Of a DNA stretch of 64,000 nucleotides, positions 2,735 through 56,152 are shown one piece after another. The DNA comes from Leptospiria bacterium (GTDB lineage Bacteria > Spirochaetota > Leptospiria > Turneriellales > CBDBES01), in the NCBI GenBank assembly GCA_965262015.1, contig OZ253494.1, positions 1,018,720 through 1,082,719 of the forward strand, in the 5' to 3' direction. Positions within the stretch are counted from its first letter, which is position 1; every line of letters starts with the position of its first letter. The notes under the pieces were generated by a model. It saw nothing but the letters and a program-made list of their open reading frames with translations. It ran no database searches and was not told the DNA's origin. Position numbers and translations under genes: made by a program.

Positions 2735-2849
2735 AATATATGTTTTTTATAGCAGGTTTTCAACATAAAATGAAGACACCTTCATATATGGACACTGCCA
2801 TCCCTAACGGTAGGAGACAAATAAATGAACAGAAAAACGTAAAGTCATT

Positions 2850-3751: not shown

Positions 3752-3911
3752 ACATACCTCTAAAGATCTAAACTCCAAAAAATAGTACTTATTTTGGGAT
3801 ATCGTCCATACCTGTATATAGTATGGCTATGGCATCGATGAATAGATATAACACTTGTGATATGTTTGTTGACAGAATCATGTTAAAGTTCATTTTGATC
3901 ATGTCAATCTT

Positions 3912-4199: not shown

Positions 4200-4227
4200 A
4201 ACTTAAAAACAAATGAGTGATGACTGC

Positions 4228-5256
4228 CTAAATGGGTACTCTTTCTTTTAGTCTCAAAGCTACACGTGGGTTTATACTACTTTTTTTATGTTTTATTTCA
4301 AAGTGTAAATGGCTCCCTGTACTTCTACCAGTATTACCCACTCTCGCAATCCTAGTCCCTTTTTGAACAACAGTACCCTTACGTACTCGAATAGACGAAC
4401 AATGGGCATAAACACTAATATACTTATTTTTATGTCGGACAATTACTGTTTTACCGTACGCACCAAAAGAACCCGCATGTATAATAATCCCTTTGGCTAC
4501 AGCCTTTATGGATGTCCCCCATTTTGCAGAGATATCCATCCCTGTATGAAAATGCCTTTTACCCAGTATCGGATGTCGCCTCCAACCATAGGAACTTGTA
4601 AGTTTACCTCGTAGAGGCCAGATAAATCTTGAAATATACCGATATCTTGTAGTAGGTAAGGGCTTAGCACCACGCAAAAAAATACGTTCACCCCTTTTCA
4701 GTTTAGGCGATATATATTTGCTTACATTACTTAGAGAAAGTCGATAGGTTTTAGCAATTTTACCCAGTGTGTCACCATTGCGAACTTTATAATAGAGTCC
4801 TATTTGTGATGGGATATGTAATACATCACCAGGATGAATTATATTTTTTTCTACTTTGGGATTAGCTGATGTGATCGTATATACCGGTATATTAAATTTA
4901 TTTGCAATATTCCATAAAGACTCTCCAGGGCGAACAGTGTAATTAGTTGATTTTTTAACTTTGGATATGCCAACAATTTTTTTCTTTGAATTTTGTGCAT
5001 CCTTTTTAGTCCCATCTACTAATCGTTTAGTTTCCTCTTCTTCAGCAGGGTTAGCCCGTATACTCTCGAAGTATTGGCTAATCGCATTGTCAATTTCTTC
5101 ACCATAAACAATTACCTGAGGGTCAGAGGGAGGCTCAGAACTTTTAGGAATAACACTGGCATATTTGGGAGAAATATAACTAGTTAGAAAAATAATTAAA
5201 ATGAATGAAATGCAACAACTAACCAAAAATAGCAGAATTTTATCAAAAAGTTTCAT
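4228..5256 (-). CDS. LysM-domain M23 family murein endopeptidase
   Basis: N-terminal TM or signal segment. Two LysM repeats (YTVRPGESLWNIANKFNIP and YKVRNGDTLGKIAKTY). M23 metal motifs HTGMDI and GSHLHFEI. Confidence 0.85.
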   Translation of the reverse strand: MKLFDKILLFLVSCCISFILIIFLTSYISPKYASVIPKSSEPPSDPQVIVYGEEIDNAISQYFESIRANPAEEEETKRLVDGTKKDAQNSKKKIVGISKVKKSTNYTVRPGESLWNIANKFNIPVYTITSANPKVEKNIIHPGDVLHIPSQIGLYYKVRNGDTLGKIAKTYRLSLSNVSKYISPKLKRGERIFLRGAKPLPTTRYRYISRFIWPLRGKLTSSYGWRRHPILGKRHFHTGMDISAKWGTSIKAVAKGIIIHAGSFGAYGKTVIVRHKNKYISVYAHCSSIRVRKGTVVQKGTRIARVGNTGRSTGSHLHFEIKHKKSSINPRVALRLKERVPI

Positions 5257-5344
5257 ATATCTAAGAGAGACTTACCATATAACCCTCTATAGTATCGTCA
5301 TAATGATAATAAGATTTAAGTAAAATTGTTACATGGACATAAGC

Positions 5345-6202
5345 TTATTTTGAAAAACTACCAACAATCATATCACCCGTGTGAAAATATTTTGCTGACC
5401 AGTCCGCTAACCTTTTCTTGGTTTTATAAATTTGTGAGCCATATTCCAATGTAGTATATCCCGACCCATAGGTAAAAGAATGTTCTAGGTTAAGATGGTA
5501 TTTACGGAGCCATATTTTAAGAGCATGGCGACTAAAATACCAAAGATGTTCTGGCACATTTAGGTACCGCCACCCTATCCCGTATCGTTTTGCCCATAAA
5601 CCTATGTGACAGGTAGACAGATATAGTTTGCCATTAGGAGTTAATACTCGACTAATTTTTTGTAGAATAAGGTCTATATTAGGTAGATGCTCTATAGTAG
5701 CCCATAAAGTAATTAAACCATATGTTTGATCTGCTATATTCATATCAAGAAAATCAACTTTCTGCAACGAGATGGCTTGTTTAAGACCTTCGTCAATCAT
5801 GCTCTCTGCAATATCAATGCCTAAGGCATCCCATCCCCTTTTAGAAAAAAATTCTGTACAATGACCAGCGGCACAACCAATGTCTAGTGTTTTTTTCTCT
5901 CCAACCTCAAGTGTGTTTTCCCAAGCATAAAAAGATAATCCTTTTAAATTTTTTTTTAGAGTGCTTAGTATACTTTTTTTAACAATAAGAGAATGGTAGT
6001 TATTATAGCCTCTTTCTGTTCTTTGCGTAAAATATTCATCCTGGTAGAGTTTATTTAACTCTTGACCATCTGGTAGAGGGTATATCTGCCATAGATTACA
6101 TTTATGGCAGTCATAAATAGAATATATCTTATTAACTCGAGATTTCTTGTGGTATTTAATAGATAAAGCAGATGAACAATGATAACAAATTGGTTGTAAC
6201 AT
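5345..6202 (-). CDS. Class I SAM-dependent methyltransferase with N-terminal Cys-rich zinc-ribbon-like segment
   Basis: Motif I is LDIGCAAGHCTEFF. The N-terminus has CYHC...CHKC. Confidence 0.7.
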   Translation of the reverse strand: MLQPICYHCSSALSIKYHKKSRVNKIYSIYDCHKCNLWQIYPLPDGQELNKLYQDEYFTQRTERGYNNYHSLIVKKSILSTLKKNLKGLSFYAWENTLEVGEKKTLDIGCAAGHCTEFFSKRGWDALGIDIAESMIDEGLKQAISLQKVDFLDMNIADQTYGLITLWATIEHLPNIDLILQKISRVLTPNGKLYLSTCHIGLWAKRYGIGWRYLNVPEHLWYFSRHALKIWLRKYHLNLEHSFTYGSGYTTLEYGSQIYKTKKRLADWSAKYFHTGDMIVGSFSK

Positions 6203-6224
6203 CTACTACATTAGAAAATCGCCA

Positions 6225-7472
6225 CTAAGCATCTTTACCAATCACATGTACTACGTTAGTAGTAGCGGAGCCTCCAATATTCAAGGTAGCTACCCGCTTG
6301 GCATTTTCTACTTGATAACCTCCTGCTTGAGTAGATACTTGCTTGTAAGCATCAAGAATTTGTCTTGCTCCAGTACCGCCCACTGGATGACCTGCTCCAA
6401 TTAAACCACCTGAAGGATTGACAGGTAAGCTACCGTCAAAATCAATAACACCTTCTTCGATAGATTTCCATGCTTCACCAGGTTTGGCCAGGCCAAAGTG
6501 TTCAATTGCCGCATATTCTGAAGTTGTAAAACAATCATGTGTCTCAATAACAGATAAATCTTCAGGACCTTGTATATTAGCCCTTTGATAGGCGTCCGTA
6601 ATAGCTTTTCTTGTATGAGGTAAAGGATACTCACTATGTTGTGCCTCTTCTACTTTATCATCAAATAAAATAGGAGCAGTAGCATGTCCCCATCCCTGGA
6701 TATAAGGTATATCGTCTAAATTCAATCCTCTTTTTTGTGCATAATCCTTTGCTTTGGTAGCCGAAGCTAGAAAAATAACAATACCTCCATCAGTTACCTG
6801 AGAACAGTCTGTAAGATGTATCATACCACCAACCTGCATATTATAATTATCATGTTTATTTGCATGTGCTTTGCTCATATACCAATCCCGGGTTTGTGCC
6901 CGTGGATTACGTTTTGCATTTTTATAATTAATATCAGAAATAGCGGCCAGATGTTCATACTTCAGGCCATATTTATCACGATATAAATCCCCTAAGCGAC
7001 CAAAGAGCTTAGGGAATGGAAATAGTACTCCTTTGGCCTCTTTGTCATACCAGGCGGCAGTACCTAAAAAATCCCCGCCTGTCTTAGAGTCCACCTGTTT
7101 CATAAACTCAATACCCAATACCATACTACAATCATAAATACCTGCTTCAATTTCTGTACGAGCAGCCAAGGTAGCTACAGCACTAGAAGCACAGGCTGCC
7201 TCGTGTCTTGATGTTGGTAGTCCACGAAAATTTTTATCATAATTAACTGCCATAGCACCCAGATGCCCTTGACGATTATATAAACTTCCCGCAAAATTAC
7301 CTACATGAATGACATTAATATCTTTAACATCCAGTTGGGTCTCGAGAAGGCCTCCTTCAATAGTCTCATTCATCATGGCCTGCAGACTTTTATTTTCTTT
7401 GGACCAGTTACGGGCAAAATCTGTTTGATAGCCACCTAGAATATAAACTTTTTTTTGAGAATTTTTTGACAT
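6225..7472 (-). CDS. Thiolase-family acetyl-CoA C-acyltransferase
   Basis: Active-site blocks HEAACASSAVATLA, ETHDCFT and GHPVGGTGA. The start is placed at MSKNSQKK, which is preceded by AGGAGG (plus strand 7478-7490). Confidence 0.8.
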   Translation of the reverse strand: MSKNSQKKVYILGGYQTDFARNWSKENKSLQAMMNETIEGGLLETQLDVKDINVIHVGNFAGSLYNRQGHLGAMAVNYDKNFRGLPTSRHEAACASSAVATLAARTEIEAGIYDCSMVLGIEFMKQVDSKTGGDFLGTAAWYDKEAKGVLFPFPKLFGRLGDLYRDKYGLKYEHLAAISDINYKNAKRNPRAQTRDWYMSKAHANKHDNYNMQVGGMIHLTDCSQVTDGGIVIFLASATKAKDYAQKRGLNLDDIPYIQGWGHATAPILFDDKVEEAQHSEYPLPHTRKAITDAYQRANIQGPEDLSVIETHDCFTTSEYAAIEHFGLAKPGEAWKSIEEGVIDFDGSLPVNPSGGLIGAGHPVGGTGARQILDAYKQVSTQAGGYQVENAKRVATLNIGGSATTNVVHVIGKDA

Positions 7473-8950: not shown

Positions 8951-10177
8951 TTAAGGCTTATAGTTTCTAGGGAAACGTATAGTAAAGCGGGTATAATGCC
9001 CCTTAGAATGTACTTGTATATAGCTATTATGTTCTTCAATCACTTTATTAACAAAAAACAAGCCCATGCCTGCATTATTACCTTGATTTTTAGTGGAAAA
9101 GAAGGGATCAAATATCTTCTTAAGTAGCTCATCAGAAATTCCGCCCGCACTATCAATAATATTAATAAGGATAAACTCATGATGCTTGATAGTACTTAAC
9201 TCTCTCTGCCCTTGCGAGAAATACTTGGTTTTATGCTTAGCATTCGTATCACTAATATATTCTGCAGTAATCCATAAATAAAGCTTATTCCGTTCTTCTC
9301 GTTGTTCTAGTGCCTGGAAGGTATTAGTGAATAAATTTTGGAATACTAGTTTTAATCTTTGTGCATCTCCATATACTGGAGATTTTCGATCTATTTTCCA
9401 TAACCAATGTACTTTCAAAACTATTTTATTCTGATAAAGTTTCTTAGTAATCGTGAGGGCTTCACCAATAACCTTTCTAATATTAACTGGATACAAAGGA
9501 TAGATATCTCTATTAACTGATCGTTGGATATTCATAATAATATCTAAGGCTGTTTTCAAACCATCTTTAACAAGACGGATATCAGGGTTGCTAGAAGGTT
9601 TTATATCTTTTAATTGATCTACTGTTAACCGTATCCCCAGTAAAATATTTTTTATTTCATGGATGATACTTTGTACGGTAGTCCCAATTGTTTGTAATTT
9701 AGCATTCCTATAATTAAGCTTTTCTTGTTCTTTCTGTAAAGTAACATCCACTAACGAATCAACTAACAAATAAGATGAGGTACTATCCTGAAGAAAATAT
9801 TGCTTAAGCCAGAAAACAGATGTCTTAAAGGAAAAATGTTCTTGCTGATTATCAATTTTGATTTCTTGATCGACTCTAAAATTATCACGTGCTAATTTTT
9901 GGAACGAATCGTGCTTATTTTTATAAAAACAAAAAGTACATGGCGAATCAAAGCCAAACAAAACTTGGTAGCATTTTTTCCCCAGTGCTTCCGTATAAGT
10001 CTTATGATTACTTAATTCTAGTGCAGAACGATTCAATCTAGTAATCGTAAAATTTTTATCAATGAGAATAATAGAGGCATCCAGAGTATCGATAAGACTC
10101 TGCAATTGCCCACTTTTAAAGCTAGCCTGCGAATAAGGGAAATTTACTTGCTCTGTGTGATTAGTTTCTAAGGACAT
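8951..10177 (-). CDS. PAS-domain sensor histidine kinase (orphan, no TM)
   Basis: H-box IIHEIKNILLGI. HATPase_c N, G1 and G2 boxes in FQNLFTNTFQA, DSAGGISDELLKKIFDPFFSTK and GMGLFFV. Confidence 0.8.
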   Translation of the reverse strand: MSLETNHTEQVNFPYSQASFKSGQLQSLIDTLDASIILIDKNFTITRLNRSALELSNHKTYTEALGKKCYQVLFGFDSPCTFCFYKNKHDSFQKLARDNFRVDQEIKIDNQQEHFSFKTSVFWLKQYFLQDSTSSYLLVDSLVDVTLQKEQEKLNYRNAKLQTIGTTVQSIIHEIKNILLGIRLTVDQLKDIKPSSNPDIRLVKDGLKTALDIIMNIQRSVNRDIYPLYPVNIRKVIGEALTITKKLYQNKIVLKVHWLWKIDRKSPVYGDAQRLKLVFQNLFTNTFQALEQREERNKLYLWITAEYISDTNAKHKTKYFSQGQRELSTIKHHEFILINIIDSAGGISDELLKKIFDPFFSTKNQGNNAGMGLFFVNKVIEEHNSYIQVHSKGHYTRFTIRFPRNYKP

Positions 10178-39701: not shown

Positions 39702-41299
39702 TTATTGTGTTATGGTTATCTTTCGGATACGATGGTTGCCCGTATCTGCCACATATACATTGCCTAACTTATCAACCGCTACATCTTCAGGCCTTTTAAA
39801 TTGTACTGAAGTACCTGTGCCATCAGAACTACCACTACCGCCACCCGCCAATGTTGTAACCACACCATCAGGCGTTATTTTGCGGATACGATCGTTATCA
39901 CGATCTGCCACGTATACAAACCCTTTACTATCAACCGCTACTCCACTAGGCTTATTAAATTTTGCTGAAGTACCCACACCATCAGAATTACCACTACCGC
40001 CACCCGCCAATGTCGTAACCACACCACCAGGTGTTATTTTTTGGATACGATCGTTATCACGATCTGCCACGTATACAAACCCTTTACTATCAACTGCTAC
40101 ACTAACAGGAGTATTAAATTGTGCTGGACTCCCACCACCTGCAAATGTTGTAACCGTACCTGTGGACGTTATTTTGCGGATACGATCGTTCACAGTATCT
40201 GCCACGTATAATACATTGCCTGAACCATCAACCGCTACTCCATAAGGATTACTAAATCGCGCATCGGTACCCATGCCCTTCGTACAGCCGGAGGAGGGGG
40301 GAGTACATGGCATGCCTCCTACCCCACTTACGTTACCACCTGCCAAGGTTATAACCGTACCCGTACCCGTACCACTAGAAGGAGGTGTTATTTTTCGGAT
40401 AAGACTTCTAACCGAATCTGCCACATATACAAACCCATCACTATCAACCGCTACACCTTCAGGCTGATAGAATTGTGCTACACCAGGCATCCCAGGCATG
40501 TCATCCATACCGCCCACAGCACCAGTACCTGCGAATAAACTAACCGTACCTGTGGACGTTATTTTGCGGATACGATGATTCTGACGATCTGCTACATATA
40601 TTATATTGCCTAAACTATTAACCGCTACTCCAGCAGGCTCACTAAATTTTGCATCTGTACCCATGCCATCTTTGCAGGACTCTCCTATTGTTGCGAGGAT
40701 AATGCGAGTAGTAGTGCCACATTTAGTAGCAGTACCCATAGTACCCCCCTCGTTACCACCTGCTAACGTTGTAACCGTAACCTCGGCACAGGTTTTATCA
40801 CTTTTTAAGGCATAATAGTCATCGCAGGAAGTACATTTTTCTATACCCTTCCCAGGAGCTTTACCTGTTAATGGCACACCATTGGGGCAAATAAAATTGA
40901 ATGGTCTGCAAAGTTCACCATTTAGATCAAAACTAGGATCGCAAGAAACACATTTTTCTGTGTTAGCGGTTGAAACCTTTTCTGTTGATTCAACACCATT
41001 CGTACAAATAGGATCAAACTGTCCAGAACCACCACCAGAAGGGGTAGTAGCGTCGGCAGAGGCACCACCACCACATTGGACAGCAGCACTTACCACCAAT
41101 ACGGCAAATACGCTGATCGAGAAGTATCTTTTGGATACATGGAAAGAATGTTGACCTTGATCAACAATTCGTTCTAAAAATTTAGGAAAAGACTTATAGG
41201 TTGCTTGTTGCTTGTTGCTTGTTGCTTGTTGCTTGTTGCTTGTTGCTTGTTGCTTGTTGCTTGTTGCTTGTTGCTTGTTGCTTGTTGCTTGTTTATCAT
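39702..41299 (-). pseudogene. NHL-repeat lipoprotein, paralog 1: reversibly frameshifted (phase OFF)
   Basis: The body ORF 39702-41099 has Cys-rich modules plus NHL blades (GVAVDSKGFVYVADRDNDRIRKITP...). The SD-preceded ATG at 41299 reads MINK(QQATSNK)4QPISLFLNF and stops at 41176-41174. The body frame continues upstream as ...YKSFPKFLERIVDQGQHSFHVSKRYFSISVFAVLVVSAAVQCGGG (lipobox) with no start codon. ATG-to-body offset is 200 nt. Confidence 0.75.
41201..41291 (-). repeat. Heptanucleotide microsatellite (CAAGCAA)13 on the coding strand
   Basis: 13 perfect TTGCTTG units on the plus strand, beginning 8 nt after the ATG (41299). Confidence 0.95.
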
Positions 41300-43134: not shown

Positions 43135-44588
43135 TTATTGTGGTATGGTTATTTTGCGGATACGATCGTTACCCGTATCTGCCACATATACATTGCCTAA
43201 CTTATCAACCGCTACATCTTCAGGCCTATTAAATTGTACTGAAGTACCTGTGCCATCAGAACTACCACTACCGCCACCCGCCAATGTTGTAACCACACCA
43301 TCAGGTGTTATTTTGCGGATACGATGATTATTAAGATCTGCCACATATACAAACCCTTTACTATCAACTGCCACTCCATAAGGCTTATTAAATTTTGCTG
43401 AAGTACCCACACCATCAGAACTACCACTACCGCCACCCGCCAATGTTGTAACCACACCATTAGGTGTTATTTTTTGGATACGATAATTATCACGATCTGC
43501 CACATATACATTGTTTGAACCATCAACTGCTACACTAACAGGCCTATTAAATTGTGCTGGACTCCCACCACCTGCAAATAAGCTAACCGTACCCATACCA
43601 CTAGAATCAAGCGTTATTTTATGGATATGATTGTTCCCAGTATCTGCCACGTATACAATCCCTGAACTATCAACCGCTACTCCAAAAGGTTCGCTAAGAC
43701 TAGTACCCGTCAAGGTATCAACCACACCTGCAGACGTTATCTTACGGATACTATTGTTGAATCTATCTGCCACATATACAAACCCATCACTATCAACCGC
43801 TACACCTTCAGGCTGCCGGAATTGTGCTACATTACCCGGACCATTCATAAAACCTCCTCCTTCTATCATCCCTCCCATACCATCCGCAGTCATACCAGTA
43901 CCTGCGAATGAGCTAACCACACGACCAGGCGTTATTTTGCGGATACGATTGTTCTGACGATCTACTACATATATATTGTCTAAACTATCAACCGCTATTC
44001 CAGCAGGATTATTAAATTCTGCTGAAGTACCTATGCCATCCATACAGCTGGAGGAGGGTGGAGTACATGGCATGCCTCCACCCTTGTTACCACCCGCCAA
44101 CGTTGTAACCGTAACCTCGGCACAGGTTTTATCACTTTTTAAGGCATAATAACTATTGCAAGAAGTACATTTTTCTATACCCTTCCCAGGAGCTTTACCT
44201 GTTGATTCAACACCATTCGTACAAATAAAATTGAATGGTCTGCAAAGTTCACCATTTTTCTCAAAACCAGTATTGCAAGAAACACATTTTTCTGTGTTAG
44301 CGGTTGAAACCTTTTCTGTTGAGGGAACACCATTCGTACAAATAGGATCAAACTGTCCAGACCCACCACCAGAAGGGATAGTAGCGTCGGCAGAGGGGGC
44401 ACCTCCACATTGGATGGTGCTTACCACCAATACGGCAAATACGCCGATCGAGAAGTATCTTTTGAATACATGGAAAGAATGTTGACCTTGATCAACAATT
44501 CGTTCTAAAAATTTAGGAAAAGACTTATAGGTTGCTTGTTGCTTGTTGCTTGTTGCTTGTTGCTTGTTGCTTGTTGCTTGTTTATCAT
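43135..44588 (-). pseudogene. NHL-repeat lipoprotein, paralog 2: reversibly frameshifted (phase OFF)
   Basis: Body ORF 43135-44430 (431 codons, NHL blades). The ATG at 44588 is followed by 7 heptamer units. ATG-to-body offset is 158 nt, the same wrong frame as paralog 1. Upstream in the body frame is ...HSFHVFKRYFSIGVFAVLVVSTIQCGGA. Confidence 0.75.
44532..44580 (-). repeat. Heptanucleotide microsatellite (CAAGCAA)7
   Basis: 7 perfect TTGCTTG units on the plus strand, 8 nt after the ATG (44588). Confidence 0.95.
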
Positions 44589-45009: not shown

Positions 45010-45600
45010 ATATGTTACAGTTATTGCCTAGGCCACTTTCATAGATTCGTAAAATCTCTTATGTGGTGTTAAAAAATTAAAAGAAGAATGTGGGCTTTTT
45101 GTATTATACCACGTGAGATATTCATCCATCTTTTTTTGTATTTCTTATATGGATAAATTTGACTAAGAATCCATATCTGCTTCTTTTCCTAAATTTCAAC
45201 GAAATCTTTCTATCTTGCTGTTTAATTGAGGTGTACAAGGTTTAATCAAATGATGATGGATATATTATGTTCTTGTAATATCTGTTCAAAACCACATAGC
45301 CTATCTTTCTCTTTTCGAGTACTATTTAGAAAAGAAATATATCTGTAGGTAAATTCCACACTATTGTCAGTTTGTATAACTTTAGGTTTACCATAAGCTC
45401 CATAAAAAGCTATTGACAGATTTAGTATAAAATGGTTGGTGTAGCCATCTAACGCTCATCTTACTCACTTTAAGTAGCTGTATCCCTACCTTTATGGCGA
45501 CTCAGACCCCAAACGAATAAATATTCACTAATATCATTCATATCGTGTCTGCTCGCTAGCAGATAAAGTCTCCTATTGTATACTTACCTGAATCCCTTAT
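45010..45600 (-). mobile_element. Degenerate rve (DDE integrase-core) transposase pseudogene
   Basis: Minus-strand translations give AFYGAYGKPKVIQTDNSVEFT (the TDNG.EF core) and MDEYLTWYNTKSPHSSFNFLTPHKRFYESMKVA* (C-terminus). Several stops and frameshifts lie between them. Confidence 0.55.
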
Positions 45601-45654: not shown

Positions 45655-48600
45655 ATGAAACATAATATGAGATTACTATTAATTATACTAGGAATATTTG
45701 GTATACATAGTTTATATTCAATACAAACACCTGAAAAAATCCAATTTCAGAAAATAGATGTTCAAGATCATACCATAGTCAATCAAATAACAGGTAGTGT
45801 ATTTACTCAAGATCACCATCCGCTATCTAATATTCATCTTTGTTTGATAAAATTAGATAAAATTTCACAAAAGCAACAGAATAATAGATTGCATTGCTAT
45901 AAAACAACTATTTCAGATAAACAGGGATATTTTAAAAGCACAATCATAGATCAAGGTACTTATCAAATTAAATATGAAGATAAACAACATAAGTATAAAA
46001 CATATATAAGCCCCTCTATTGTAGTTCGTGAGAATCATCTCATACAAGGTCAACAGTGGAATATGAAACCTGCATATTTAAAAATAACTGAACAATATTT
46101 TAAACTAAAAAAGGAAGTACGTATTTACATAAAAAATAAATTAAATAATCAACTTGTTAAACAGAAAATGTGGATACAGTTACAACTTGACCTTGATAAT
46201 ACACCTGTAAAATGTACATTATATGAGGAAGAGTTTTATAGTTGTCCTTTATACAAAGAAATAGAAATTACTAAACATGAATCTACAGAACTTAAACTAT
46301 GGCTAAAAGTAACATACCAAGATAATACTTTTGACATACAAAATCAAATTATTATTAAAAATCCAGTCAATCAACCAGTTAAAGATAGGTTGGTAATATC
46401 AAAACAATCTAATAACTATAAGTTAGTCGAAGAGAATAAACAGTATTTATACACACTTTTATGTGATACTCAGTTAGCCCAAGATAGTGTAACATTAGAA
46501 TTTCAAACTTATTTTCCTCGTATAGATCAAGAGAGTGATTTTTTTGATTCTCATAAGATTATAGCTAATTTCATGGGAGATATTACAAAATCAATTGCCT
46601 TATCTTTTACTATAAATAAGCAAAATTTTAGACAGGTAATTTCTCTAAAAAATTTTGATCACAAGTTGGCAACTATAGAACATAATTATTCACATCGTAA
46701 CTTTAACATCCAAATGTATATCTATAAGAAAAAGAAAAATGGTAGTTGGGAACTAAATAATAACTACCAGAATCCCCTTAAACAAAGTTATGCAATAGAA
46801 GCCTCGTCCATTAATTACATCACTATTAATCTAAAGAATGTAACTACAACAAAGAAGCAAACAAATATACAAGTATCTGGAAATATTTGCCTAGACATAC
46901 CCGATGAAAAAAATTGCAGTAAAGAAGATATCCCTAATAGAGCTGAGATAATACTTAAACTTCCAAATAAAAATTTATTCTTTTTTACAAATTCTAGTAA
47001 ACAGAATGTATTTAGTGAAATCATCATAGAATCTTTAAAAGCATCTCAAATCAAAGAAATTAGTATATCATATAGACCCTCTACGTACCAGACCGTAAAT
47101 CTAATTAAATGCTCCCCTGAATCCACAATGCCTGATTGTTTTGTATGGGATGACGAAAACAAACACTTACAATTACCTTACATTAATTTAATCCATAAAA
47201 AGAATTATATCCAAGAATTATATTTAGAACTTACTAGTATTAATAGTCAAAGTAAACGTCTGCCTTTCTCATTACCTATTAAATTAGAAATAGAAGGGAA
47301 TTCTTTTTTTGTAGAAACAAGTCAAAATTCTAGTACAACTGTAAGGGTGGAACTTAATCAAGGATGCTATATCGGCGAAAAAATAAATATTACCATCACA
47401 CCAACCATCCCTCTAGCACTTAAACAAATTTTATCTACTATACGTCCAAAATCAGACATACCATACCAAACAAGTATTACTTGCACACCCACTAATCATT
47501 ATCACCTAAATGTCATGTACAAGCATGGTATTTATATTAAAGGTTCTGTATTTAATACATCTCACCAGGGAGCTCAGGACTTATCTCTTATGATAAAATA
47601 TCATGGAAATATCTTGCATGAAATACGTACTAATGCAGAAGGTCAGTTTTTATTCCACCTAACAGATACATTTTTAAAACTACCGAGTAAGGAAGTATTA
47701 CATATCTATACTAAGGATGTCTCTAAACCTCTTAAGGAGATCTCGCTCTATAATTATAAAATAGGTGATACAATAAATACAGAAATTATTATTCAAGATA
47801 GTGATACTGGAATAGAACTATGGTCTCTTGTAGGACACGTATACGATGAAAACAACCTGTCTGGTATTGAGAAAGTTAAGGTACAATTACATAAAACCCA
47901 TCTTGATCAAAAAATAGATATTGGGCAAGCCTATACCCAAAATAATTGTCAAGATAAGTCATCCTGTATCTTTCAAATATCTCATCTCTCTATTCCTAAA
48001 CGATATGACATTACTAGTGTACTAAAATCATACTCGATTAGTATGGAACATCCTTATTATCAGGCCAGAGACTCTATCAGTGTAGCAGATATGATAACAA
48101 ATATTAGTATCCTAAAAGAGAAGAAACAAATCATTATTCATGCACAAAAAGATAATTTATTTTTAAGACCAATAAAAACGATATCTCTGCTAATAAAATC
48201 TAGTATGAGTTTTACATCCCAAAACATTACACCCTCTAGCGTATTTATAAAATATATCCAAAACAATATACTGGTTCAGATCCAAGATTCTACAAAAAAT
48301 ATTTTATATAAGGGTAAATTAGAGTCACCTATTGTACTTACATGGGAACAGGGTATTATGCAAGCATTACAAAATGAAAAAACAAATAATATAAAATTTC
48401 AATATTTTTTAAAGGAGCCCCATGAGATTCATATGGTGATGGAAGAAGTGCAAAGCTTAAAAGAATTATGCTCCGTTAATATAACAGAAATTCATTTAAA
48501 ACCTCATTTAGTATTCAAAGCACAAATTCATAAACAGCAATTTGATATTGTAGCTTTACAAATGAATTTTTCTCAAGCCTTGTTACAAAGAACTAAATTA

Positions 48601-50073
48601 CCAGCTTCTTTCCATCTTAATGATATGGTATTAAATAAAAAAAATTGGGAGATCGCATTTTTAGACATGACATGGCAACCAAGTACAATGCGCTACCTTC
48701 CCCATAAAAACAAGATTGAAATTGGATATTTGACTTGGTCATCTATTCAGCCTACGATACAAATTCGTCAGACAAAATCTTTTTTGAAACAGATGTTTCA
48801 TTTTTACTTTGTTGGCTGTAAAAATAAGAGATGCTTAATAATAAATGAAAAATTAGCTTCATATACTTTTTTATTTCAAGCATCCTATAAAAATTGGCTG
48901 GGCTGGAATGACATAATCGAATATGAAGATCTCAAAGAACAAATAAGTTTTACTTTATCCATAGATAATATTACCATTACACAGCCAATTGAGGTAACTA
49001 CTAAACTAAAATATGATAGTGATTCAGAAGGTCCTTTTAAAATACAAATAGCACCTAGTTTAAAAATCAAGAATCTTTCCACAGATATCATTAACCATTG
49101 GTATAAAAATGGCATCCCTAATACTAAAGATATGAAATTGAATTTACTGGATTATAATACCCTAACAACACATAAAGAGCCTGATAAAGAAATTTGGATA
49201 TTTAGAATGCAAATTGTACACAATAAACTGCCTGCAAATTTAACCCAGTATCCTTTGCATAAAAATATTCCTAAGGATGTATTAAAACAAATGTCTTTTG
49301 TGGAACAAAATAAAAATGCGTATGTACGAGGCTGCTATGCTTCTTTTTTTTACCCTCGTTACAAAAACTATGTAAGATGGGATAAATTATCATGGGTTGA
49401 TGCTAAAGGTAAAAAAGTAAAAACAAATAAGGGTAAGGGTTCGCATGTATATATTGGTTGTCAGAATACAAATCGATTTAGTCGTGCCTGTCCTAGTAGA
49501 AAATATCACTGGCAAGAAGTAGAGCAACATGACATCCAAGGTTATAAGGAGTATACTCGACGTAAGCGAAATAATAACGAGAGAGGTAACCCTTATGGAT
49601 GCAATACATTTTGTACGTTAGCTGTCAGTGCCATGGCATATGATTATCTGGGTTTTGATCTACAAGCCCCACCAAAATCCATAAAAATTGGTAACCAAAC
49701 TTTTACAGATTTAAATGGAAATAATATATCATATGTTCTAGAAAATGACTTATTAAATTTAAACTCTACTACATATACTTTGAAACAATGGTATTTAGCA
49801 GAACAAAAAGCTAAGGAGGGTCAATTAGTTTTTATTACACTAGATAACTGCACCTCGAAATTAAATAGGCAATGTAGAACAGGTCATATTGCAGTCCTCA
49901 CTGGAGGAAGAAAAACTAATCAGAAAACAAAGAAGAATGCGGTAAATAATTTGTACATATACCAGGCAGGAGCTTCTTTTGGATTTATGACTTTAGAACA
50001 AGGTTTTGGATATTATATTTATGGTAGACCATCAAAAATTAAATTTGTGGTAGTACCACGCCCTACTTCATGA
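45655..50073 (+). CDS. Giant secreted protein: multiple CarboxypepD_reg/Ig-like modules plus a C-terminal papain-like (NlpC/P60-CHAP-Tae4-like) Cys-His domain
   Basis: Signal peptide MKHNMRLLLIILGIFGIHSLYS. Modules include ITGSVFTQDHHPLSNIHL...DKQGYFKSTIIDQGTYQIKY and IKGSVFNTSHQGAQDLSL...NAEGQFLFHL. In the C-terminus NPYGCNTFCTLAVSAMAYDYLG (Cys codon 49612-49614) is followed 91 aa later by TGHIAVLTGG (His codon 49885-49887). Confidence 0.7.
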   Translation: MKHNMRLLLIILGIFGIHSLYSIQTPEKIQFQKIDVQDHTIVNQITGSVFTQDHHPLSNIHLCLIKLDKISQKQQNNRLHCYKTTISDKQGYFKSTIIDQGTYQIKYEDKQHKYKTYISPSIVVRENHLIQGQQWNMKPAYLKITEQYFKLKKEVRIYIKNKLNNQLVKQKMWIQLQLDLDNTPVKCTLYEEEFYSCPLYKEIEITKHESTELKLWLKVTYQDNTFDIQNQIIIKNPVNQPVKDRLVISKQSNNYKLVEENKQYLYTLLCDTQLAQDSVTLEFQTYFPRIDQESDFFDSHKIIANFMGDITKSIALSFTINKQNFRQVISLKNFDHKLATIEHNYSHRNFNIQMYIYKKKKNGSWELNNNYQNPLKQSYAIEASSINYITINLKNVTTTKKQTNIQVSGNICLDIPDEKNCSKEDIPNRAEIILKLPNKNLFFFTNSSKQNVFSEIIIESLKASQIKEISISYRPSTYQTVNLIKCSPESTMPDCFVWDDENKHLQLPYINLIHKKNYIQELYLELTSINSQSKRLPFSLPIKLEIEGNSFFVETSQNSSTTVRVELNQGCYIGEKINITITPTIPLALKQILSTIRPKSDIPYQTSITCTPTNHYHLNVMYKHGIYIKGSVFNTSHQGAQDLSLMIKYHGNILHEIRTNAEGQFLFHLTDTFLKLPSKEVLHIYTKDVSKPLKEISLYNYKIGDTINTEIIIQDSDTGIELWSLVGHVYDENNLSGIEKVKVQLHKTHLDQKIDIGQAYTQNNCQDKSSCIFQISHLSIPKRYDITSVLKSYSISMEHPYYQARDSISVADMITNISILKEKKQIIIHAQKDNLFLRPIKTISLLIKSSMSFTSQNITPSSVFIKYIQNNILVQIQDSTKNILYKGKLESPIVLTWEQGIMQALQNEKTNNIKFQYFLKEPHEIHMVMEEVQSLKELCSVNITEIHLKPHLVFKAQIHKQQFDIVALQMNFSQALLQRTKLPASFHLNDMVLNKKNWEIAFLDMTWQPSTMRYLPHKNKIEIGYLTWSSIQPTIQIRQTKSFLKQMFHFYFVGCKNKRCLIINEKLASYTFLFQASYKNWLGWNDIIEYEDLKEQISFTLSIDNITITQPIEVTTKLKYDSDSEGPFKIQIAPSLKIKNLSTDIINHWYKNGIPNTKDMKLNLLDYNTLTTHKEPDKEIWIFRMQIVHNKLPANLTQYPLHKNIPKDVLKQMSFVEQNKNAYVRGCYASFFYPRYKNYVRWDKLSWVDAKGKKVKTNKGKGSHVYIGCQNTNRFSRACPSRKYHWQEVEQHDIQGYKEYTRRKRNNNERGNPYGCNTFCTLAVSAMAYDYLGFDLQAPPKSIKIGNQTFTDLNGNNISYVLENDLLNLNSTTYTLKQWYLAEQKAKEGQLVFITLDNCTSKLNRQCRTGHIAVLTGGRKTNQKTKKNAVNNLYIYQAGASFGFMTLEQGFGYYIYGRPSKIKFVVVPRPTS

Positions 50074-50573
50074 TTATGATACAAAGAGCTACCCTGGTAT
50101 ATATTACTGTAATCTATCTAATATCCTTACCTATTAGTGCCACTGATACTTCTGTAAAACAGATTAATCACTTTTGTCTAAATAATCAAACAAATATGGT
50201 AAAGAAATATCTGGAAAATAAAATATATCGTATTCTAGCTGCGAGTAATAATGAAGATTGGTATTTTCAACCTAAAGGTATTGTAACATGGTGTGAATCC
50301 TATTCAACAGCTTGCTTACTTGAACCTACTATACAAAAACACAAAGGGCAATGGATTATCAAAAACTATAAATATGGCGTAGAATTATTAGTCTATGACG
50401 AAAAACACTCCCTCGTGATACAGATGCCTATTTATTTTTTTGTAGATAAGCCCAAGTATCATGGATTATGTATAGGACTAATCAAAGGACAGAATGTAAA
50501 TAAGCTAACATGCCAGGAACATCAGAAATTTTATGTTCCTGAAATTTATTTAAAAAAGAAATTATTACCTTGA
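50070..50573 (+). CDS. Small exported Cys-containing protein, translationally coupled to the giant protein
   Basis: ATGA start/stop overlap at 50070-50073. Signal peptide MIMIQRATLVYITVIYLISLPISA|TD. Confidence 0.6.
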   Translation: MIMIQRATLVYITVIYLISLPISATDTSVKQINHFCLNNQTNMVKKYLENKIYRILAASNNEDWYFQPKGIVTWCESYSTACLLEPTIQKHKGQWIIKNYKYGVELLVYDEKHSLVIQMPIYFFVDKPKYHGLCIGLIKGQNVNKLTCQEHQKFYVPEIYLKKKLLP

Positions 50574-50579
50574 TAGGGT

Positions 50580-52634
50580 TTACTTTTTTTCTTTTAATGA
50601 AGCTAAAAAAGGAGCTATTTGTTTATTGGCAGAATCAATACTTTGTAATTTTAGTGCATACTCTGTAGCTTTATCATATAAACCTTGTATTTTATAGAGC
50701 TTCATGGCTAATATAAAAACCTCTGCTTTTTTCTTCTTGGTAACTACCTTATCAATATAATAACAAGCTTCCTTATACTGTTTTTTAGCTGTATATAACT
50801 TTGCTAAAGCGAATAAGACATTGGGTATGTTTTTTATTAGTTTATTAGCTTCTAGTAAATAAGATAAACTTTGGTCTATATCCGTTTTTAATGCTTGTTG
50901 AGCTTGTTTATATAGTACAGTAAGTTCATGCCATTTTACATCCAATTGTAGTGAAAATAAAGTTATATCATCCTGAGGGGAAAACGAGGAAGAAAACATT
51001 GTTAACTCTTCTTTAACTTTTGTATGTATTTCTTCTAACGTATTATTTTTCATTTCACTAATAATATGTAAAAGTCGCTGCTCACCAAAAGGTTCATTAC
51101 TTTGATTCGTATATTCTGTAATACCATCTGTATAAATAAAAATCTTATCTCCACTATGCAATAATAATGATTTTGATTCATAATCTTGAATGGGCTTGGG
51201 GAATACGCCAATTAAAGAACCATTTGTTTGTAAGGATATAATTTCATCATTTTTGTAAGAATAATACAGGGCATGGGCATGGGCGGCATTACAATAAGAA
51301 ACTTGATTAAGCGAGTCAATTTTTATACCAAAACAAGTTAGATAATCATCCGTCTTGATAATACCAGATAGCTTAGCATTCATATCAAAAAATATTTCAT
51401 CTACTGTGCTATCAGCGGTAGAAGTATTATAGAGAAACTGCTTAGCAGTCATAGTAAGCAAGGCAGCTGGAATACCATGACCAGATACATCGCCAACAAA
51501 AATATAAAGATGATCATGCGCTTTAATTACTTCATAAAAATCTCCAGAAATCATTTGTAATGGTAAATACGTTGTAGAAAAAGATATAGCATTCCAAGGA
51601 TAAATCTCCTTAGGCATCATTCCTTGTTGTATGGCAGCACCTGTTTTAAGGCCCATTTCTACTTCTTTATTCTGTAATTTAAGCTCTTGGTGAAGAACAT
51701 TCAATTCAGAAGTAAATTTAGCTGTTTGAATCTCATATTCACGATGTACTCTATTAATAGCACGATCAAGTTTTGTGTCTTTGGCTAATTTACGCCTATG
51801 TCTATATTGACTGATACGGCTTATAAAATTATCTTCTTGAAAATAATCAGCCCAATAGGAGACATGTCCACGTAAATAAAAGATATTATTAATATTATAT
51901 TTAGGATTAGAATCAGTTATATTATTTCCATTTTGGTCAAGTATTGAATTTTTTGGTCCTGCATAATATTTGATATTATCAATTTCATTAAAATCAAGAG
52001 GAGAAAGGGGTGTACTTCTTTCCAAAAATGTATAACGTTCCGGATGATTTCTAAATTTGGTCTGTAACATTGTCTTTACTATACCATTTAGCATATACAC
52101 ACTGGATAAATGGGGCCTCTTAAATTCACTAGGTAAACGCTTATAAGTCCATGATAAACAGGTTCTTTGTGTTCTATTCTTCTTATTTCTCATTGTGCGA
52201 CTACGGGCTATACTAACGATACTCATGATATTACTAGACTGTTTGACTCTCTTCAATAACATCCGTAACGGCATAGTACGTACTATTGATGAGATAAGGG
52301 CATTCCTATTCCCCATAAACGCACCTAGTTTAGTATATACCGTTGGATCATTATCAAACCATTTTAGCCATTCTATCATAAAAGCTACTTCAAGCAGATA
52401 AGAATTCCAACTTTTATTACCCATTAAGTGTCGATGAATACTACTACCCGACTTGATACCAAGATTAGCAAATACGGAATCACATGCATCTTGTCCTTTA
52501 TGAGTTTTTAAGAATAATGTGGCCTGTTGTATATAGCTTGAACTACGCTCTTTTTTTGTAATAGCAACATATAGATCAATAGGTTGCTTGATTATCTGGA
52601 CATTATGAAAACAATCTAATGGTAAAGGTTTCAC
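50580..52634 (-). CDS. PP2C/SpoIIE-family serine phosphatase with a novel N-terminal domain and C-terminal TPR
   Basis: PP2C blocks SGDFYEV, FVGDVSGHGIPAALL, IFIYTDGITE and QDDITLF. The C-terminal helical repeats are TPR-like. Confidence 0.8.
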   Translation of the reverse strand: MKPLPLDCFHNVQIIKQPIDLYVAITKKERSSSYIQQATLFLKTHKGQDACDSVFANLGIKSGSSIHRHLMGNKSWNSYLLEVAFMIEWLKWFDNDPTVYTKLGAFMGNRNALISSIVRTMPLRMLLKRVKQSSNIMSIVSIARSRTMRNKKNRTQRTCLSWTYKRLPSEFKRPHLSSVYMLNGIVKTMLQTKFRNHPERYTFLERSTPLSPLDFNEIDNIKYYAGPKNSILDQNGNNITDSNPKYNINNIFYLRGHVSYWADYFQEDNFISRISQYRHRRKLAKDTKLDRAINRVHREYEIQTAKFTSELNVLHQELKLQNKEVEMGLKTGAAIQQGMMPKEIYPWNAISFSTTYLPLQMISGDFYEVIKAHDHLYIFVGDVSGHGIPAALLTMTAKQFLYNTSTADSTVDEIFFDMNAKLSGIIKTDDYLTCFGIKIDSLNQVSYCNAAHAHALYYSYKNDEIISLQTNGSLIGVFPKPIQDYESKSLLLHSGDKIFIYTDGITEYTNQSNEPFGEQRLLHIISEMKNNTLEEIHTKVKEELTMFSSSFSPQDDITLFSLQLDVKWHELTVLYKQAQQALKTDIDQSLSYLLEANKLIKNIPNVLFALAKLYTAKKQYKEACYYIDKVVTKKKKAEVFILAMKLYKIQGLYDKATEYALKLQSIDSANKQIAPFLASLKEKK

Positions 52635-53908: not shown

Positions 53909-56152
53909 TTACTCCGACAACCTAAATTGTACTAATTGGTATGTTTTACTCATAATTGGATTGTTAAGCTTATCATAACTTGGTTTGTAACGTTTCCTTT
54001 TGTAAGCTTTTACAGCTGCTCGATCGAGACCAAAACCTAACTTTCTACCAATGATTTTAGCATTCAGCACCTTACCAGTCTTAGATATCACTAACTCCAA
54101 CATAATATTTCCTTGAATAGCATTTCGCCGAGCAGCTATTGGATAATCGATCACAACATTAGACTTGTCTAATGGTACAGGCATGCTGGCACCAATAGAT
54201 AAAGGATTTATAGCCTGGGCTAGAAATTTTTTCCGCTCTAGTGCTTTCTTTTTAGCTTGCTTGGCTTTCTTTTTAGCTTGCTCGGCTTTCTTTTTAGCTT
54301 GCTCGGCTTTCTTTTTAGCTTGCTCGGCTTTCTTTTTAGCTTGCTCGGCTTTCTTTTTAGCTCGCTCGGTGGTCTTTTTAGCTCGCTCGGTGGTCTTCTG
54401 CCCAGCTTTCTCTTTAGCTTGCTTGGCTTCCTCTTCAGCTTGCTTGGCTTTCTCTTTAGCTTGCTTGGCTTTCTCTTTAGCTCGCTTGGCTTCTTCTTTA
54501 GCTCGCTTAGTTTCTTTTTCAGCTTGCCTGGCTTCTTCTTTAGCTCGCTTAGTTTCTTCTTCAGCTTCCTTGGCTTCTTCTTCAGCTTCTTTAATTCTAT
54601 CTAATCTTTTAGAACGAAGCTTTTCAATGGGTATAGGAGTACCTGGTATTGTTAATTGCGTTTGTATCTTAGCTTGTTCTTGAATAATCTCTTCAGGCTG
54701 TTTATCAAATGGTACAAGTATTTTCTCAGGAACTTTGTCTAACTTTACTTGTTCTGGTATAATTTTTTCTTCTTCTGGTATTTCTTTCTGTACTTCTTCC
54801 TGTACTTCTTTTTTGCTCTTAGACGTAGAGACTATATTAAAAGCATAAATAATCTTCTTATCCTTCTTAGATAGCTGGGCAGTATAGGCTGCCTGCTCTG
54901 AGGCATACTCCACTTCTATCTGCCAATAATAACGCCCAACATCTAGATCATTAACAATAAAGCTTCTACCGGACACTAGTTTATTAATAATTATATTGCG
55001 CATCTCTTTGTCTTTGGCAACAAGAAGTCGTACAGGCACTGAACGTTCTAAATCCCAACGAAATCGAATAGCTTCACCCAACTTTGATATAGAATTATAA
55101 GCAGGAGACTGTAATAAGAGCCCTACCGAGCCTTCAATACGGAAATCATGGGGCACAGAAGCGGTTAATTGCCCATCACGCTGTCCAGTGACCTGCCAAT
55201 ACCATGTACCAGCTGACAAGGCAACCTTCTTTTGGAATCCATTGGTCTTATATATAGCTTTTTTATCAAAAGTTTTTGTAGAAGAAATATACAACTCATA
55301 CGAATCTAGATCCACTAATGCATTCCATCTAAAAAGAATATCATACTTAGATTTACGACTGTCTAAAACAAACAGACCGGCTGGCTCAGGATGAATACTT
55401 AAAATATCAATTTGATGAAGTGCTTTTTTTACTCTTCCACTCTCTTTATCCTCGACAATAGATAAAACCTCACCTGCTATGATAATGTCTTCACTTAGAT
55501 CTTCCTCTACCTGCCCTGGTTTATCCTTTTGTCTCTTTGCACTCTTCTTTTTTTGCCCATCTTTTGGTGCACCAAGCTCATTCTGAGAGACTGCAGCAAC
55601 TTTCTCTGTGGGCGGGGGCTTTGCCTTATTTAAACGTACTGAACCACTCTCCACATATACATTAGTTTGTTGATTAATTCTTTGTAAAGTAACTTCGGCA
55701 TCACCAATATTAATGATAGAATCACCCAAACGTATTTTAGTAGTATCTGTTTCTGAAGCCCCAGTGGCTCGTAAAATACCACTGTTAAAGACTAAACCAA
55801 GATCTTGACCATGAACCTGTATTTGCAACAAAGAGTTAGATTCTATTTCAATAATACTACCTGTTCTAAGAACAATCATTGCACTCGAATTCTCTTGTGT
55901 AAGGATATAGTCGTTATAATATACATCTGAATCTATGGCAATTACTTCCCAAATAAAACGGCCTGATAGCTTCCGTAATACAACGTTAGATGTATGCACT
56001 ACTTTACCTAGAACTTGTGCACCTGATTCATGAGAAAGCGAACGGGTAAAATGTAAATAGACAAGAACAGACCAAATAATAGAATTTAGTAACAAAAATA
56101 ATATAACTTTTGTACCGCCCTGACTTTTATTAAATGAAGGATTTTGTAACAT
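53909..56152 (-). CDS. Membrane-anchored FecR-like / K-E-A-repeat / TonB C-terminal domain fusion protein
   Basis: TM segment VILFLLLNSIIWSVLVYLHF. FecR-like block ILTQENSSAMIVLRTGSIIEIESNSLLQI. About 110 aa are almost pure K/E/A/Q. The TonB_C-like end is YPIAARRNAIQGNIMLELVISKTGKVLNAKII...AVKAYKRKRYKP. Confidence 0.7.
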   Translation of the reverse strand: MLQNPSFNKSQGGTKVILFLLLNSIIWSVLVYLHFTRSLSHESGAQVLGKVVHTSNVVLRKLSGRFIWEVIAIDSDVYYNDYILTQENSSAMIVLRTGSIIEIESNSLLQIQVHGQDLGLVFNSGILRATGASETDTTKIRLGDSIINIGDAEVTLQRINQQTNVYVESGSVRLNKAKPPPTEKVAAVSQNELGAPKDGQKKKSAKRQKDKPGQVEEDLSEDIIIAGEVLSIVEDKESGRVKKALHQIDILSIHPEPAGLFVLDSRKSKYDILFRWNALVDLDSYELYISSTKTFDKKAIYKTNGFQKKVALSAGTWYWQVTGQRDGQLTASVPHDFRIEGSVGLLLQSPAYNSISKLGEAIRFRWDLERSVPVRLLVAKDKEMRNIIINKLVSGRSFIVNDLDVGRYYWQIEVEYASEQAAYTAQLSKKDKKIIYAFNIVSTSKSKKEVQEEVQKEIPEEEKIIPEQVKLDKVPEKILVPFDKQPEEIIQEQAKIQTQLTIPGTPIPIEKLRSKRLDRIKEAEEEAKEAEEETKRAKEEARQAEKETKRAKEEAKRAKEKAKQAKEKAKQAEEEAKQAKEKAGQKTTERAKKTTERAKKKAEQAKKKAEQAKKKAEQAKKKAEQAKKKAKQAKKKALERKKFLAQAINPLSIGASMPVPLDKSNVVIDYPIAARRNAIQGNIMLELVISKTGKVLNAKIIGRKLGFGLDRAAVKAYKRKRYKPSYDKLNNPIMSKTYQLVQFRLSE
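54242..54600 (-). repeat. In-frame 21-nt tandem repeats encoding (AEQAKKK)n and related K/E/A heptads
   Basis: Seven consecutive 21-nt units at 54242-54388 (GGCTTTCTTTTTAGCTTGCTC and variants), followed by degenerate copies to ~54600. Confidence 0.9.

Follow-up and report, generated by a model that had tools for sequence, protein, structure and literature searches.

The locus studied here raises the question of what a giant exported protein carries at its C-terminal end, and of what the small exported protein encoded directly behind it might be doing there. Both genes lie in a stretch of 64,000 nucleotides (nt) from a Leptospiria bacterium (assembly GCA_965262015.1, contig OZ253494.1, positions 1,018,720 to 1,082,719), which as a whole is called the window below. 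An initial annotation had read the end of the giant protein as a papain-like Cys-His domain and the two genes as an effector/immunity-like pair. According to our analysis of the sequences, the C-terminal module of about 255 amino acids (aa) is probably a cysteine hydrolase of the NlpC/P60 type that stands closest to Tae1. This assignment is supported by convergent, individually weak lines, namely remote profile similarity together with genomic context.

The giant gene is an open reading frame (ORF) of 4.4 kb without interruption, in DNA of 29-31% GC content. Residues are numbered throughout in the 1487-aa frame, which opens with TTG at position 45610; translation probably begins at the ATG at 45655, and the protein then has the 1472 aa of the initial annotation, the length also of the database copy, P0002. 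A Kyte-Doolittle scan placed a single hydrophobic segment in the entire protein, at its N-terminus and of the signal-peptide type, as had been expected. The two motifs on which the hydrolase idea had been built were recovered where they had been reported: NPYGCNTFCTLAVSAMAYDYLG occupies aa 1327-1348 (nt 49588-49653) and TGHIAVLTGG aa 1424-1433 (nt 49879-49908), so that Cys1335 and His1426 are 91 residues apart. The module is composed of an N-terminal subdomain (NKxAYxxG...W) followed by a predicted Cys-His catalytic core resembling that of Tae1/Tse1.

The module belongs to an extremely small family. When 1.84 billion representative proteins were searched exhaustively by HMMER, with aa 288-1487 as the query, four were retrieved: the giant protein itself, P0003 (3060 aa), P0004 (3045 aa) and P0005 (244 aa). 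P0003 is 41% identical over its C-terminal 530 aa and bears the same C-terminal module, P0004 matches at the stalk (aa 875-1175) only, and P0005 is the module as a standalone protein. Scans of DNA for the QAG..FG.M motif added a 256-aa module protein from a metagenome contig (L002) and a 431-aa module protein from an IMG/VR contig (L033; E 3.6e-28 to the family profile); no copy was found by such scans in the GTDB species genomes. Five module-bearing proteins are thus known from all collections searched (the window protein, P0003, P0005 and those of L002 and L033). A profile from a three-sequence alignment (A1) found P0005 only, and a word-indexed homologue search with the module returned no match, not even the query itself. 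A scan for the pattern GH[IV]A[IV]xTGN gave chance matches only, to nucleotidyltransferase-like and tail-fibre-like proteins.

It was clearly established that the entire module of about 250 aa can be aligned across the five members (alignment A5), with the following residues invariant: N1234, A1237, G1241, W1257, Y1312, T1333, C1335, L1377, A1397, A1401, G1404, L1406, G1425, H1426, A1428, G1432, Q1452, A1453, G1454, F1457, G1458, M1460 and G1465-F1466-G1467. The T-x-C, G-H, QAG, FG, M and GFG elements are therefore kept in 5/5 proteins, and the significance that had been attached to the Cys and His motifs holds, with Gln1452 and Gly1454 now standing beside Cys1335 and His1426. Since this Cys and this His are invariant in five homologues, the motifs belong to a real family and are not due to chance. 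Cys1331, the first Cys of the motif, is conserved in the giant proteins only, and Cys1335 is the candidate nucleophile. The six non-catalytic Cys residues of the window module are all found in P0003, and the three versions without a signal peptide lack most of them, which fits a putative stabilisation of the enzyme by disulfides outside the cytoplasm.

The relationship of the giant proteins extends into the stalk. The stalk is 27% identical to P0004 (BLASTP, E 2e-26), and the giant protein is 43% identical to P0003 over aa 1068-1483; aa 878-1217 are common to both of these 3000-aa relatives, the stalk is otherwise largely unannotated, and no BLASTP similarity to P0003 or P0004 was found in the first ~870 aa. 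The many CarboxypepD_reg/Ig-like modules of the initial annotation could not be maintained: one match below the cut-off was obtained (Table 1), and self-BLAST of the giant protein revealed no internal repeats. Domains of the CarboxypepD_reg type number three or four in P0003 and P0004.

What such a module might do was approached through its remote relatives. When PDB sequences were searched with the family profile (hmmsearch), the top eight distinct sequences were in every run Tse1/Tae1 of P. aeruginosa, with E-values of 0.5-0.7 (four sequences, full module), 0.33-0.5 (four sequences, trimmed core) and 0.067-0.12 after the fifth member had been added; the matches that followed Tse1, at E 0.26 to 1.5, were to unrelated proteins. 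The aligned segment terminates at GHVAVV, which holds the catalytic His91 of Tse1. Sub-profiles built from the two giant proteins alone and from two phage proteins alone each matched this same His91 segment. In a pairwise hhalign comparison of the profile with a single Tse1 sequence (100% identical to 4eob_A) the probability was 81-86% and the score 38-40 (best 39.9), against 11.6-11.8 ± 2.1-2.3 with a maximum of 22.4 for 200 shuffles of Tse1. Against MepS and the LysK CHAP domain, both as unverified sequences, hhalign gave probabilities of 0.5% and 8%, and no Tae4 or CHAP chain was among the PDB matches of the family profile at E ≤ 10. Of the families named in the initial annotation the NlpC/P60 type could thus be retained, on remote, sub-significant similarity to Tse1/Tae1 and on context, whereas Tae4, CHAP and classical NlpC/P60 went undetected. 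In global mode hhalign paired Cys1335 with Cys30 (NCSGF), His1426 with His91 and Gly1454 (of QAG) with Gly111. Cys30 and His91 are the catalytic dyad of Tse1, the carbonyl of Gly111 stabilises the His, and the amides of Cys30 and Ile113 make the oxyanion hole (Benz et al., PMC3391265). We regard the values of the Tse1 similarity as suggestive.

The context of the other family members points in a similar direction. In L001, P0005 closes an array of tightly overlapping genes, whose products include one that is phrog_6185-like (E 5.5e-10), one that is tail-like (phrog_6122 and phrog_5795) and one of 90 aa, the end of which is overlapped by the start of P0005. The 256-aa homologue of L002 is likewise preceded by a small protein, of 82 aa, and is followed on its 3' side by a tail-fibre protein (phrog_772, E 7e-48) whose closest matches by tblastn, at 34% identity, are in LE1-like phages of Leptospira; these phages have the neighbouring tail-fibre gene in common with L002, with a different gene order around it. 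Both small proteins are predicted to have an N-terminal membrane segment and a coiled coil (Table 1). BLASTP gave no alignment between them, and weak matches to phrog_1009 are the only link; phrog_1009, a PHROG of unknown function, may be a holin or spanin family. A lysin-sized protein that has no signal peptide and stands after a holin/spanin-like gene among tail genes would occupy a position like that of an endolysin or tail lysin. When P0005 was compared by tblastn with 50,697 GenBank phage records, no match was obtained.

In L033 (IMGVR_UViG_2654587566_000002, 2594-6552) the module forms the C-terminus of the 431-aa protein, which has no signal peptide and an N-terminus that looks LysM-like by eye. 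On its 5' side a 335-aa protein, also without signal peptide, has T4 lysozyme as its sole PDB match (E 0.59, over the catalytic N-terminus). On the 3' side a 156-aa lipoprotein-like ORF begins 6 nt after the module gene and is followed by more small exported proteins, one of which (141 aa) matches PDB 6ar7 (E 2.6e-9), which we take to be a DUF1311/LprI-like protein. This region could hold the lysis genes of a prophage or form a toxin/immunity island. An AAA-type ATPase, with a GPSGTGKT motif seen by eye, is divergently encoded upstream.

The second question concerns the small gene. Its start and the stop of the giant gene overlap as ATGA (50070-50073), and its 167-aa product has five Cys residues and one hydrophobic segment, at the N-terminus; the coupling and the several-Cys, signal-peptide character given in the initial annotation are therefore present. 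The history of the pair could be followed in the locus of P0004 (L004). P0003 and P0004 are homologous over their full length (29% identity), and P0004 stops about 25 residues short of the module start. Just past this stop, in another frame, a remnant of the module end is still legible, KPSKIKFVSVPSQDAN followed by a stop codon, in which KPSKIKFVSVP matches RPSKIKFVVVP of the module end at 9/11 positions. It is overlapped by a 68-codon ORF (MLIKKIMHSLLFYLFLLIKLNAQSADLKYLNSACINGLIQPVTKYLEGKIYH...), a homologue of the small protein's first 53 aa (residues 8-53 aligned), remnant and ORF together lying at 19139-19360 of L004; the Smith-Waterman score was 72 against 27.7 ± 4.9 for shuffled sequences, 0/2000 of which reached it, and phmmer gave E 6e-5. 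Module and small gene were therefore already adjacent and overlapping in the common ancestor of stalk proteins, those of the window and P0004, that are now only 27% identical. The joint decay itself is observed: in L004 the catalytic module has been deleted and the small gene cut down, as would be expected of a toxin with its antidote or an enzyme with its inhibitor. The phage loci and L033 yielded no homologue of the small protein, which is to be expected of phage enzymes that remain cytoplasmic until lysis.

These data can be combined in a model. Sec would export the 1472-aa protein, the stalk of which would display a C-terminal Tae1-like cysteine amidase with Cys1335 as the nucleophile and His1426 as the base, and the backbone near Gly1454 would play the part that Gly111 and Ile113 have in Tse1, in supporting the His and the oxyanion hole. 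Peptidoglycan stem peptides would be what the module most likely cleaves, possibly at the gamma-D-Glu-mDAP (meso-diaminopimelic acid) bond as in Tse1; peptidoglycan as the substrate appears to us fairly likely. Because such an enzyme would transit the producer's own periplasm, the co-translated signal-peptide protein would most likely be its cognate periplasmic inhibitor: it would enter the same compartment, block the enzyme and spare the producer's sacculus. That the small protein really is a periplasmic inhibitor of this kind is a matter on which we are evenly divided. The enzyme would then attack neighbouring cells or peptidoglycan that lies outside the producer, which would involve passage through the outer membrane and perhaps proteolytic release of the module. 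The full reading, an exported lytic toxin/immunity module on a long stalk, has in our judgement about an even chance of being correct, and use of the pair against other bacteria is conceivable though doubtful.

Several results weigh against this reading. No match of the module is conventionally significant, the best PDB value being E 0.067; Pfam and NCBIfam gave none at E ≤ 1-10, and the last 257-307 aa matched nothing in Pfam, NCBIfam, PADLOC, PHROGs or a PDB sequence search. The local hhalign alignment spans only the middle and the His half of the core, and the pairing with Cys30 is obtained in forced global mode alone. AlphaFold2 did not produce a confident fold, with a predicted local distance difference test (pLDDT) score of 32.6 for aa 1205-1487 as a single sequence and 34.0 with alignment A1. 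The small protein found only itself in a word-indexed search of 5.8 billion clustered proteins, which leaves the L004 remnant as its sole homologue, and it has no match in Pfam, NCBIfam, PDB, PADLOC or PHROGs and no similarity to Tsi1 or a known immunity family. In P0003 the module is intact, yet no homologue of the small protein is encoded within ±10 kb, and the next gene, 116 nt downstream, codes for a 436-aa BACON-like protein. Alternative C-terminal toxin domains or spare immunity cassettes were not seen, and the 64-kb window has no evident machinery for delivery or for export across the outer membrane. The immunity reading of the initial annotation is hence plausible in the light of the coupling, the signal peptide and the joint decay, but it is qualified by P0003 and by the lack of a known immunity family.

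Some of these points could equally be accommodated if the enzyme were directed at its own producer. The module might remodel the producer's wall, for example when cells separate or envelope structures are inserted, and be held there by a long scaffold in the periplasm or at the surface, with the small protein as a regulator or chaperone. The hydrolase evidence is the same for this explanation, Sec export puts the module into the producer's own periplasm, and the delivery machinery missing from the window, the absence of an adjacent small gene from P0003 and the lack of any sign of toxin polymorphism are all in keeping with it. A family of five patchily distributed members, one relative of which (P0004) has lost the module, is nevertheless ill-suited to a housekeeping role; its other members reside in phage or viral-type contigs, the gene itself lies in low-GC DNA beside a remnant of an insertion sequence (IS), and the joint decay in L004 resembles the fate of an accessory module. 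We therefore consider a self-directed enzyme rather unlikely. A papain-like enzyme with a substrate other than peptidoglycan (a protease, deamidase, transglutaminase or acyltransferase working on protein or lipid, possibly of a eukaryotic host, with the small protein unrelated or a chaperone) seems improbable to us. The superfamily does include such enzymes, and toxin domains of the papain-like type are diverse (PMC3482391); Tse1 is a remote match (best E 0.067), and the invariant Gln1452 and GFG motif have no counterpart in it. Against this, the sole detectable relative is a peptidoglycan amidase, homologues are preceded by membrane/coiled-coil proteins in the tail regions of phages or have a T4-lysozyme-like gene as neighbour, and the window organism, with its MurI and M23/LysM peptidase, makes a wall that contains D-Glu.

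The same genomic surroundings might also be taken to mean that the module is an evolutionary relic, a phage lysin domain caught by a giant gene that was rearranged near an IS, without function and with the small ORF as a leftover or an unrelated gene. The IS remnant directly upstream, the low GC content, the dissimilarity of the first ~870 aa to P0003 and P0004 and the demonstrable decay of the related locus L004 would agree with this; but the 4.4-kb ORF is intact in spite of the AT-rich DNA, all family-invariant residues are kept, and the small ORF is of full length, with signal peptide and ATGA coupling, which makes a relic quite improbable. Finally, the Cys and His might be structural, as metal or disulfide sites of a binding domain, and the resemblance to Tse1 fortuitous. 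The absence of a statistically significant match to characterised families and of a confident AlphaFold fold would be in line with such a domain. An hhalign score more than 10 standard deviations above the shuffles, a match that improved with an independent fifth member, three active-site positions that align in the correct order, and giant and phage sub-profiles that converge independently on the same Tse1 segment all speak for a hydrolase, and we consider the purely structural explanation highly improbable.

How the putative exported toxin/immunity pair relates to known systems is best seen from Tse1 itself, the only characterised protein that the family profile detects. Cys1335, His1426 and Gly1454 correspond to Cys30, His91 and Gly111 in conserved order and are invariant in 5/5 members, the Cys pairing coming from the global alignment only. 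The partner of Tse1 is a small periplasmic immunity protein of ~170 aa with a signal peptide (PMC3391265), and the window pair is analogous, not homologous, to the Tse1-Tsi1 arrangement, as the small protein has no Tsi1 similarity. The differences are considerable: the similarity is below significance and a Pfam/NCBIfam match is lacking, the window module has an extra N-terminal subdomain of ~100 aa, the Cys-His spacing is 91 residues instead of 61, and QAG..FG.M....GFG is invariant in the window family. Furthermore, the module is fused to a 1200-aa Sec-exported stalk and the protein has a signal peptide, whereas Tse1 is a free 154-aa substrate of type VI secretion (T6SS), genes for which were not found within the 64-kb window.

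With the polymorphic toxins the window protein has the general build in common, a large exported protein with a signal peptide, a stalk of ~1200 aa, a C-terminal peptidase-type module and a small gene directly 3', and in both cases the domain also occurs in bacteriophages. The candidate immunity gene is coupled in the window, a remnant in L004 and absent 3' of P0003. In contrast to these toxins, the window protein lacks RHS, FilH and HINT elements, and its stalk relatives are few (three in the collections searched), two of them bearing the same module and one having lost it by deletion. Zhang et al. (2012) described signal-peptide-borne polymorphic toxins with papain-like C-terminal domains, a Sec/'T2SS' (type II secretion system) trafficking class for several papain-like toxins, and NlpC/P60 toxin domains with their phage relatives; in their survey Tox-NlpC/P60 was listed with T6SS, PVC (Photorhabdus virulence cassette) and TcdB/TcaC routes and with RHS repeats, and without an immunity family (PMC3482391). 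As papain-like toxins on signal-peptide proteins had thus already been described, the scaffold proposed in the initial annotation as an unusual delivery vehicle would be only mildly unusual (PMC3482391).

The likeness to NlpC/P60/CHAP phage endolysins and virion-associated lysins lies in the 3/5 family members that are standalone or fused to a LysM-like region, have no signal peptide and come from phage or viral-type contigs; in two cases a membrane/coiled-coil protein is encoded immediately before. The window copy differs in being the C-terminus of a chromosomal Sec-exported giant with extra conserved Cys pairs and a coupled exported partner. A comparable logic is known from Bdellovibrio, where a Sec-exported predatory peptidoglycan endopeptidase, Bd3459, is encoded next to its self-protection protein, Bd3460: a lytic enzyme that crosses the producer's periplasm is neutralised by a co-encoded periplasmic inhibitor. 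The fold is unrelated, the enzyme being a DD-endopeptidase of the PBP4 type and the inhibitor an ankyrin protein, and there is no giant carrier.

Table 1. Features of the giant gene, the small gene and their relatives (window positions unless a contig is named)
Feature	Position	Strand	Evidence and remarks
Giant protein gene	45655..50073	+	1472 aa from ATG 45655; ORF opens at TTG 45610 (1487 aa)
Predicted Sec signal peptide of the giant protein, MKHNMRLLLIILGIFGIHSLYS	45655..45720	+	Kyte-Doolittle scan; cleavage site judged by eye
Weak CarboxypepD_reg-like (transthyretin-like) module, aa 59-139	45784..46026	+	Pfam PF13620, E 2.5e-5, 25 bits against a cut-off of 32.3 bits
Pre-domain stalk region common to P0003/P0004, aa 878-1171, with ASYKNWLGWNDIIEYED motif	48241..49122	+	BLASTP, exhaustive HMMER search
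C-terminal module of ~255 aa, aa 1233-1487	49306..50070	+	Five-member alignment A5, Tse1 matches
Cys1335, predicted nucleophile, invariant T-x-C	49612..49614	+	5/5 members; pairs with Tse1 Cys30 in global hhalign
His1426, predicted general base, invariant G-H-[IV]-A	49885..49887	+	5/5 members; pairs with Tse1 His91 (hmmsearch, hhalign)
Invariant Q-A-G-x-x-F-G-x-M-x-x-x-x-G-F-G motif, aa 1452-1467	49963..50010	+	Alignment A5; Gly1454 corresponds to Tse1 Gly111, Ser1456 to Ile113
Gene of 167-aa small exported protein, candidate periplasmic inhibitor/immunity protein	50070..50573	+	ATGA overlap; truncated syntenic homologue in L004
Predicted signal peptide of the small protein, MIMIQRATLVYITVIYLISLPISA	50070..50141	+	Single N-terminal hydrophobic segment; -3/-1 residues I-S-A by eye
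Degenerate IS (presumed rve-type transposase) remnant, frameshifted	~45028-45470	-	Fragments in two frames, KVIQTDNSVEFTY and LNSKIERF...YNTKSPHSSFNFLTPHKRF; upstream of the giant gene
90-aa protein before P0005	L001 3164-3436		One N-terminal membrane segment and coiled coil; phrog_1009 E 8e-4, faint Rz-like spanin match
82-aa protein before the 256-aa homologue	L002 3627-3875		N-terminal membrane segment and coiled coil; phrog_1009 E 0.047

The GC content of the 46-52 kb stretch is 29-31%, against 33-41% elsewhere in the window, and this DNA may have been acquired horizontally. The low-GC stretch 46000-52000 comprises the giant gene, the small gene and a convergent SpoIIE/TPR gene. It is bounded upstream by the IS remnant, which had been noted in the initial annotation and could be located on the minus strand; its fragments presumably belong to an rve-type transposase, judging by their motifs. 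The stop of the small gene is 6 nt from the convergent SpoIIE gene, and no cassettes were found downstream. In agreement with the initial annotation, the window's 50 ORFs of 150 aa or longer included no gene of the T6SS, of the type VII secretion system (T7SS) or of contact-dependent growth inhibition (CDI); 45/50 were scanned against Pfam or NCBIfam, and the other five (150-190 aa) are each contained in a longer gene of the opposite strand that was scanned. A C-terminal sorting domain of the type IX secretion system (T9SS) was considered for the end of the giant protein and rejected, the NCBIfam search with the last 257 aa having given just two matches, to photosystem subunits (E 0.025-0.076).

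The remainder of the window has the look of ordinary chromosomal DNA, with genes for IspF, PgsA, an M23/LysM peptidase, MurI, TrpA, SSB, L9 and DnaB, an RND pump, alternative complex III, a TonB-dependent receptor, NHL-repeat proteins and a SpoIIE phosphatase. Tandem repeats of a heptanucleotide, (GTTGCTT)n, all perfect, were observed at 41200-41293 (13.4 copies) and 44531-44582 (7.4 copies), about 100-150 nt upstream of two paralogous minus-strand NHL-repeat genes (39702-41099 and 43135-44430). Since seven is no multiple of three and the paralogues differ in their number of copies, the repeats may be a phase-variation switch of the slipped-strand kind. A minus-strand gene at 53909-56152 codes for a 747-aa protein that near its N-terminus gives a weak FecR-like match (E 5.9e-4, under the cut-off of Pfam). 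It ends in a TonB C-terminal domain and contains a long repeat region rich in Lys, Ala and Glu (KKAEQAKKKAEQ...), and the adjoining TonB-dependent receptor has a weak, sub-threshold CarboxypepD_reg match at its N-terminus. The best family of the sensor histidine kinase encoded at 8951-10177 is Leptospira LIC_12097, with a value (E 7e-52) that falls short of the family's cut-off; with the likeness of the L002 phage to Leptospira phages, this makes a relation to Leptospira possible. Even housekeeping proteins of the window (PurA, DnaB and aspartate kinase) are singletons at 90% identity among ~15 billion proteins, so the lineage appears to be poorly sampled.

The boldest version of the toxin/immunity reading would be that a giant fibre from an unsampled lineage brings a Tae1-like amidase to neighbouring cells without T6SS, type V secretion (T5SS)/CDI, T7SS or any other known contact-dependent apparatus, while an orphan periplasmic immunity protein guards the producer. 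We consider this unlikely; if it were true, the Sec-exported giant fibre would be a new delivery route for cell-wall toxins, with a domain that has been exchanged with phage lysis cassettes. If the module is active, it would represent a new and extremely rare branch of NlpC/P60/Tae1 that is missed by standard profile libraries, and, being common to phage contigs and giant exported proteins, this branch would exemplify the reuse of a lysin domain as the tip of a secreted protein. The joint decay in a related genome hints at a mutual dependence of module and small protein, and a Sec-exported lytic enzyme with a co-translated periplasmic partner would offer a simple and tractable system for questions of how a cell protects its own wall. 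The general understanding of toxin/immunity systems would not be altered by this locus, which adds a new domain family, a new carrier and an unsampled lineage to a theme already known.

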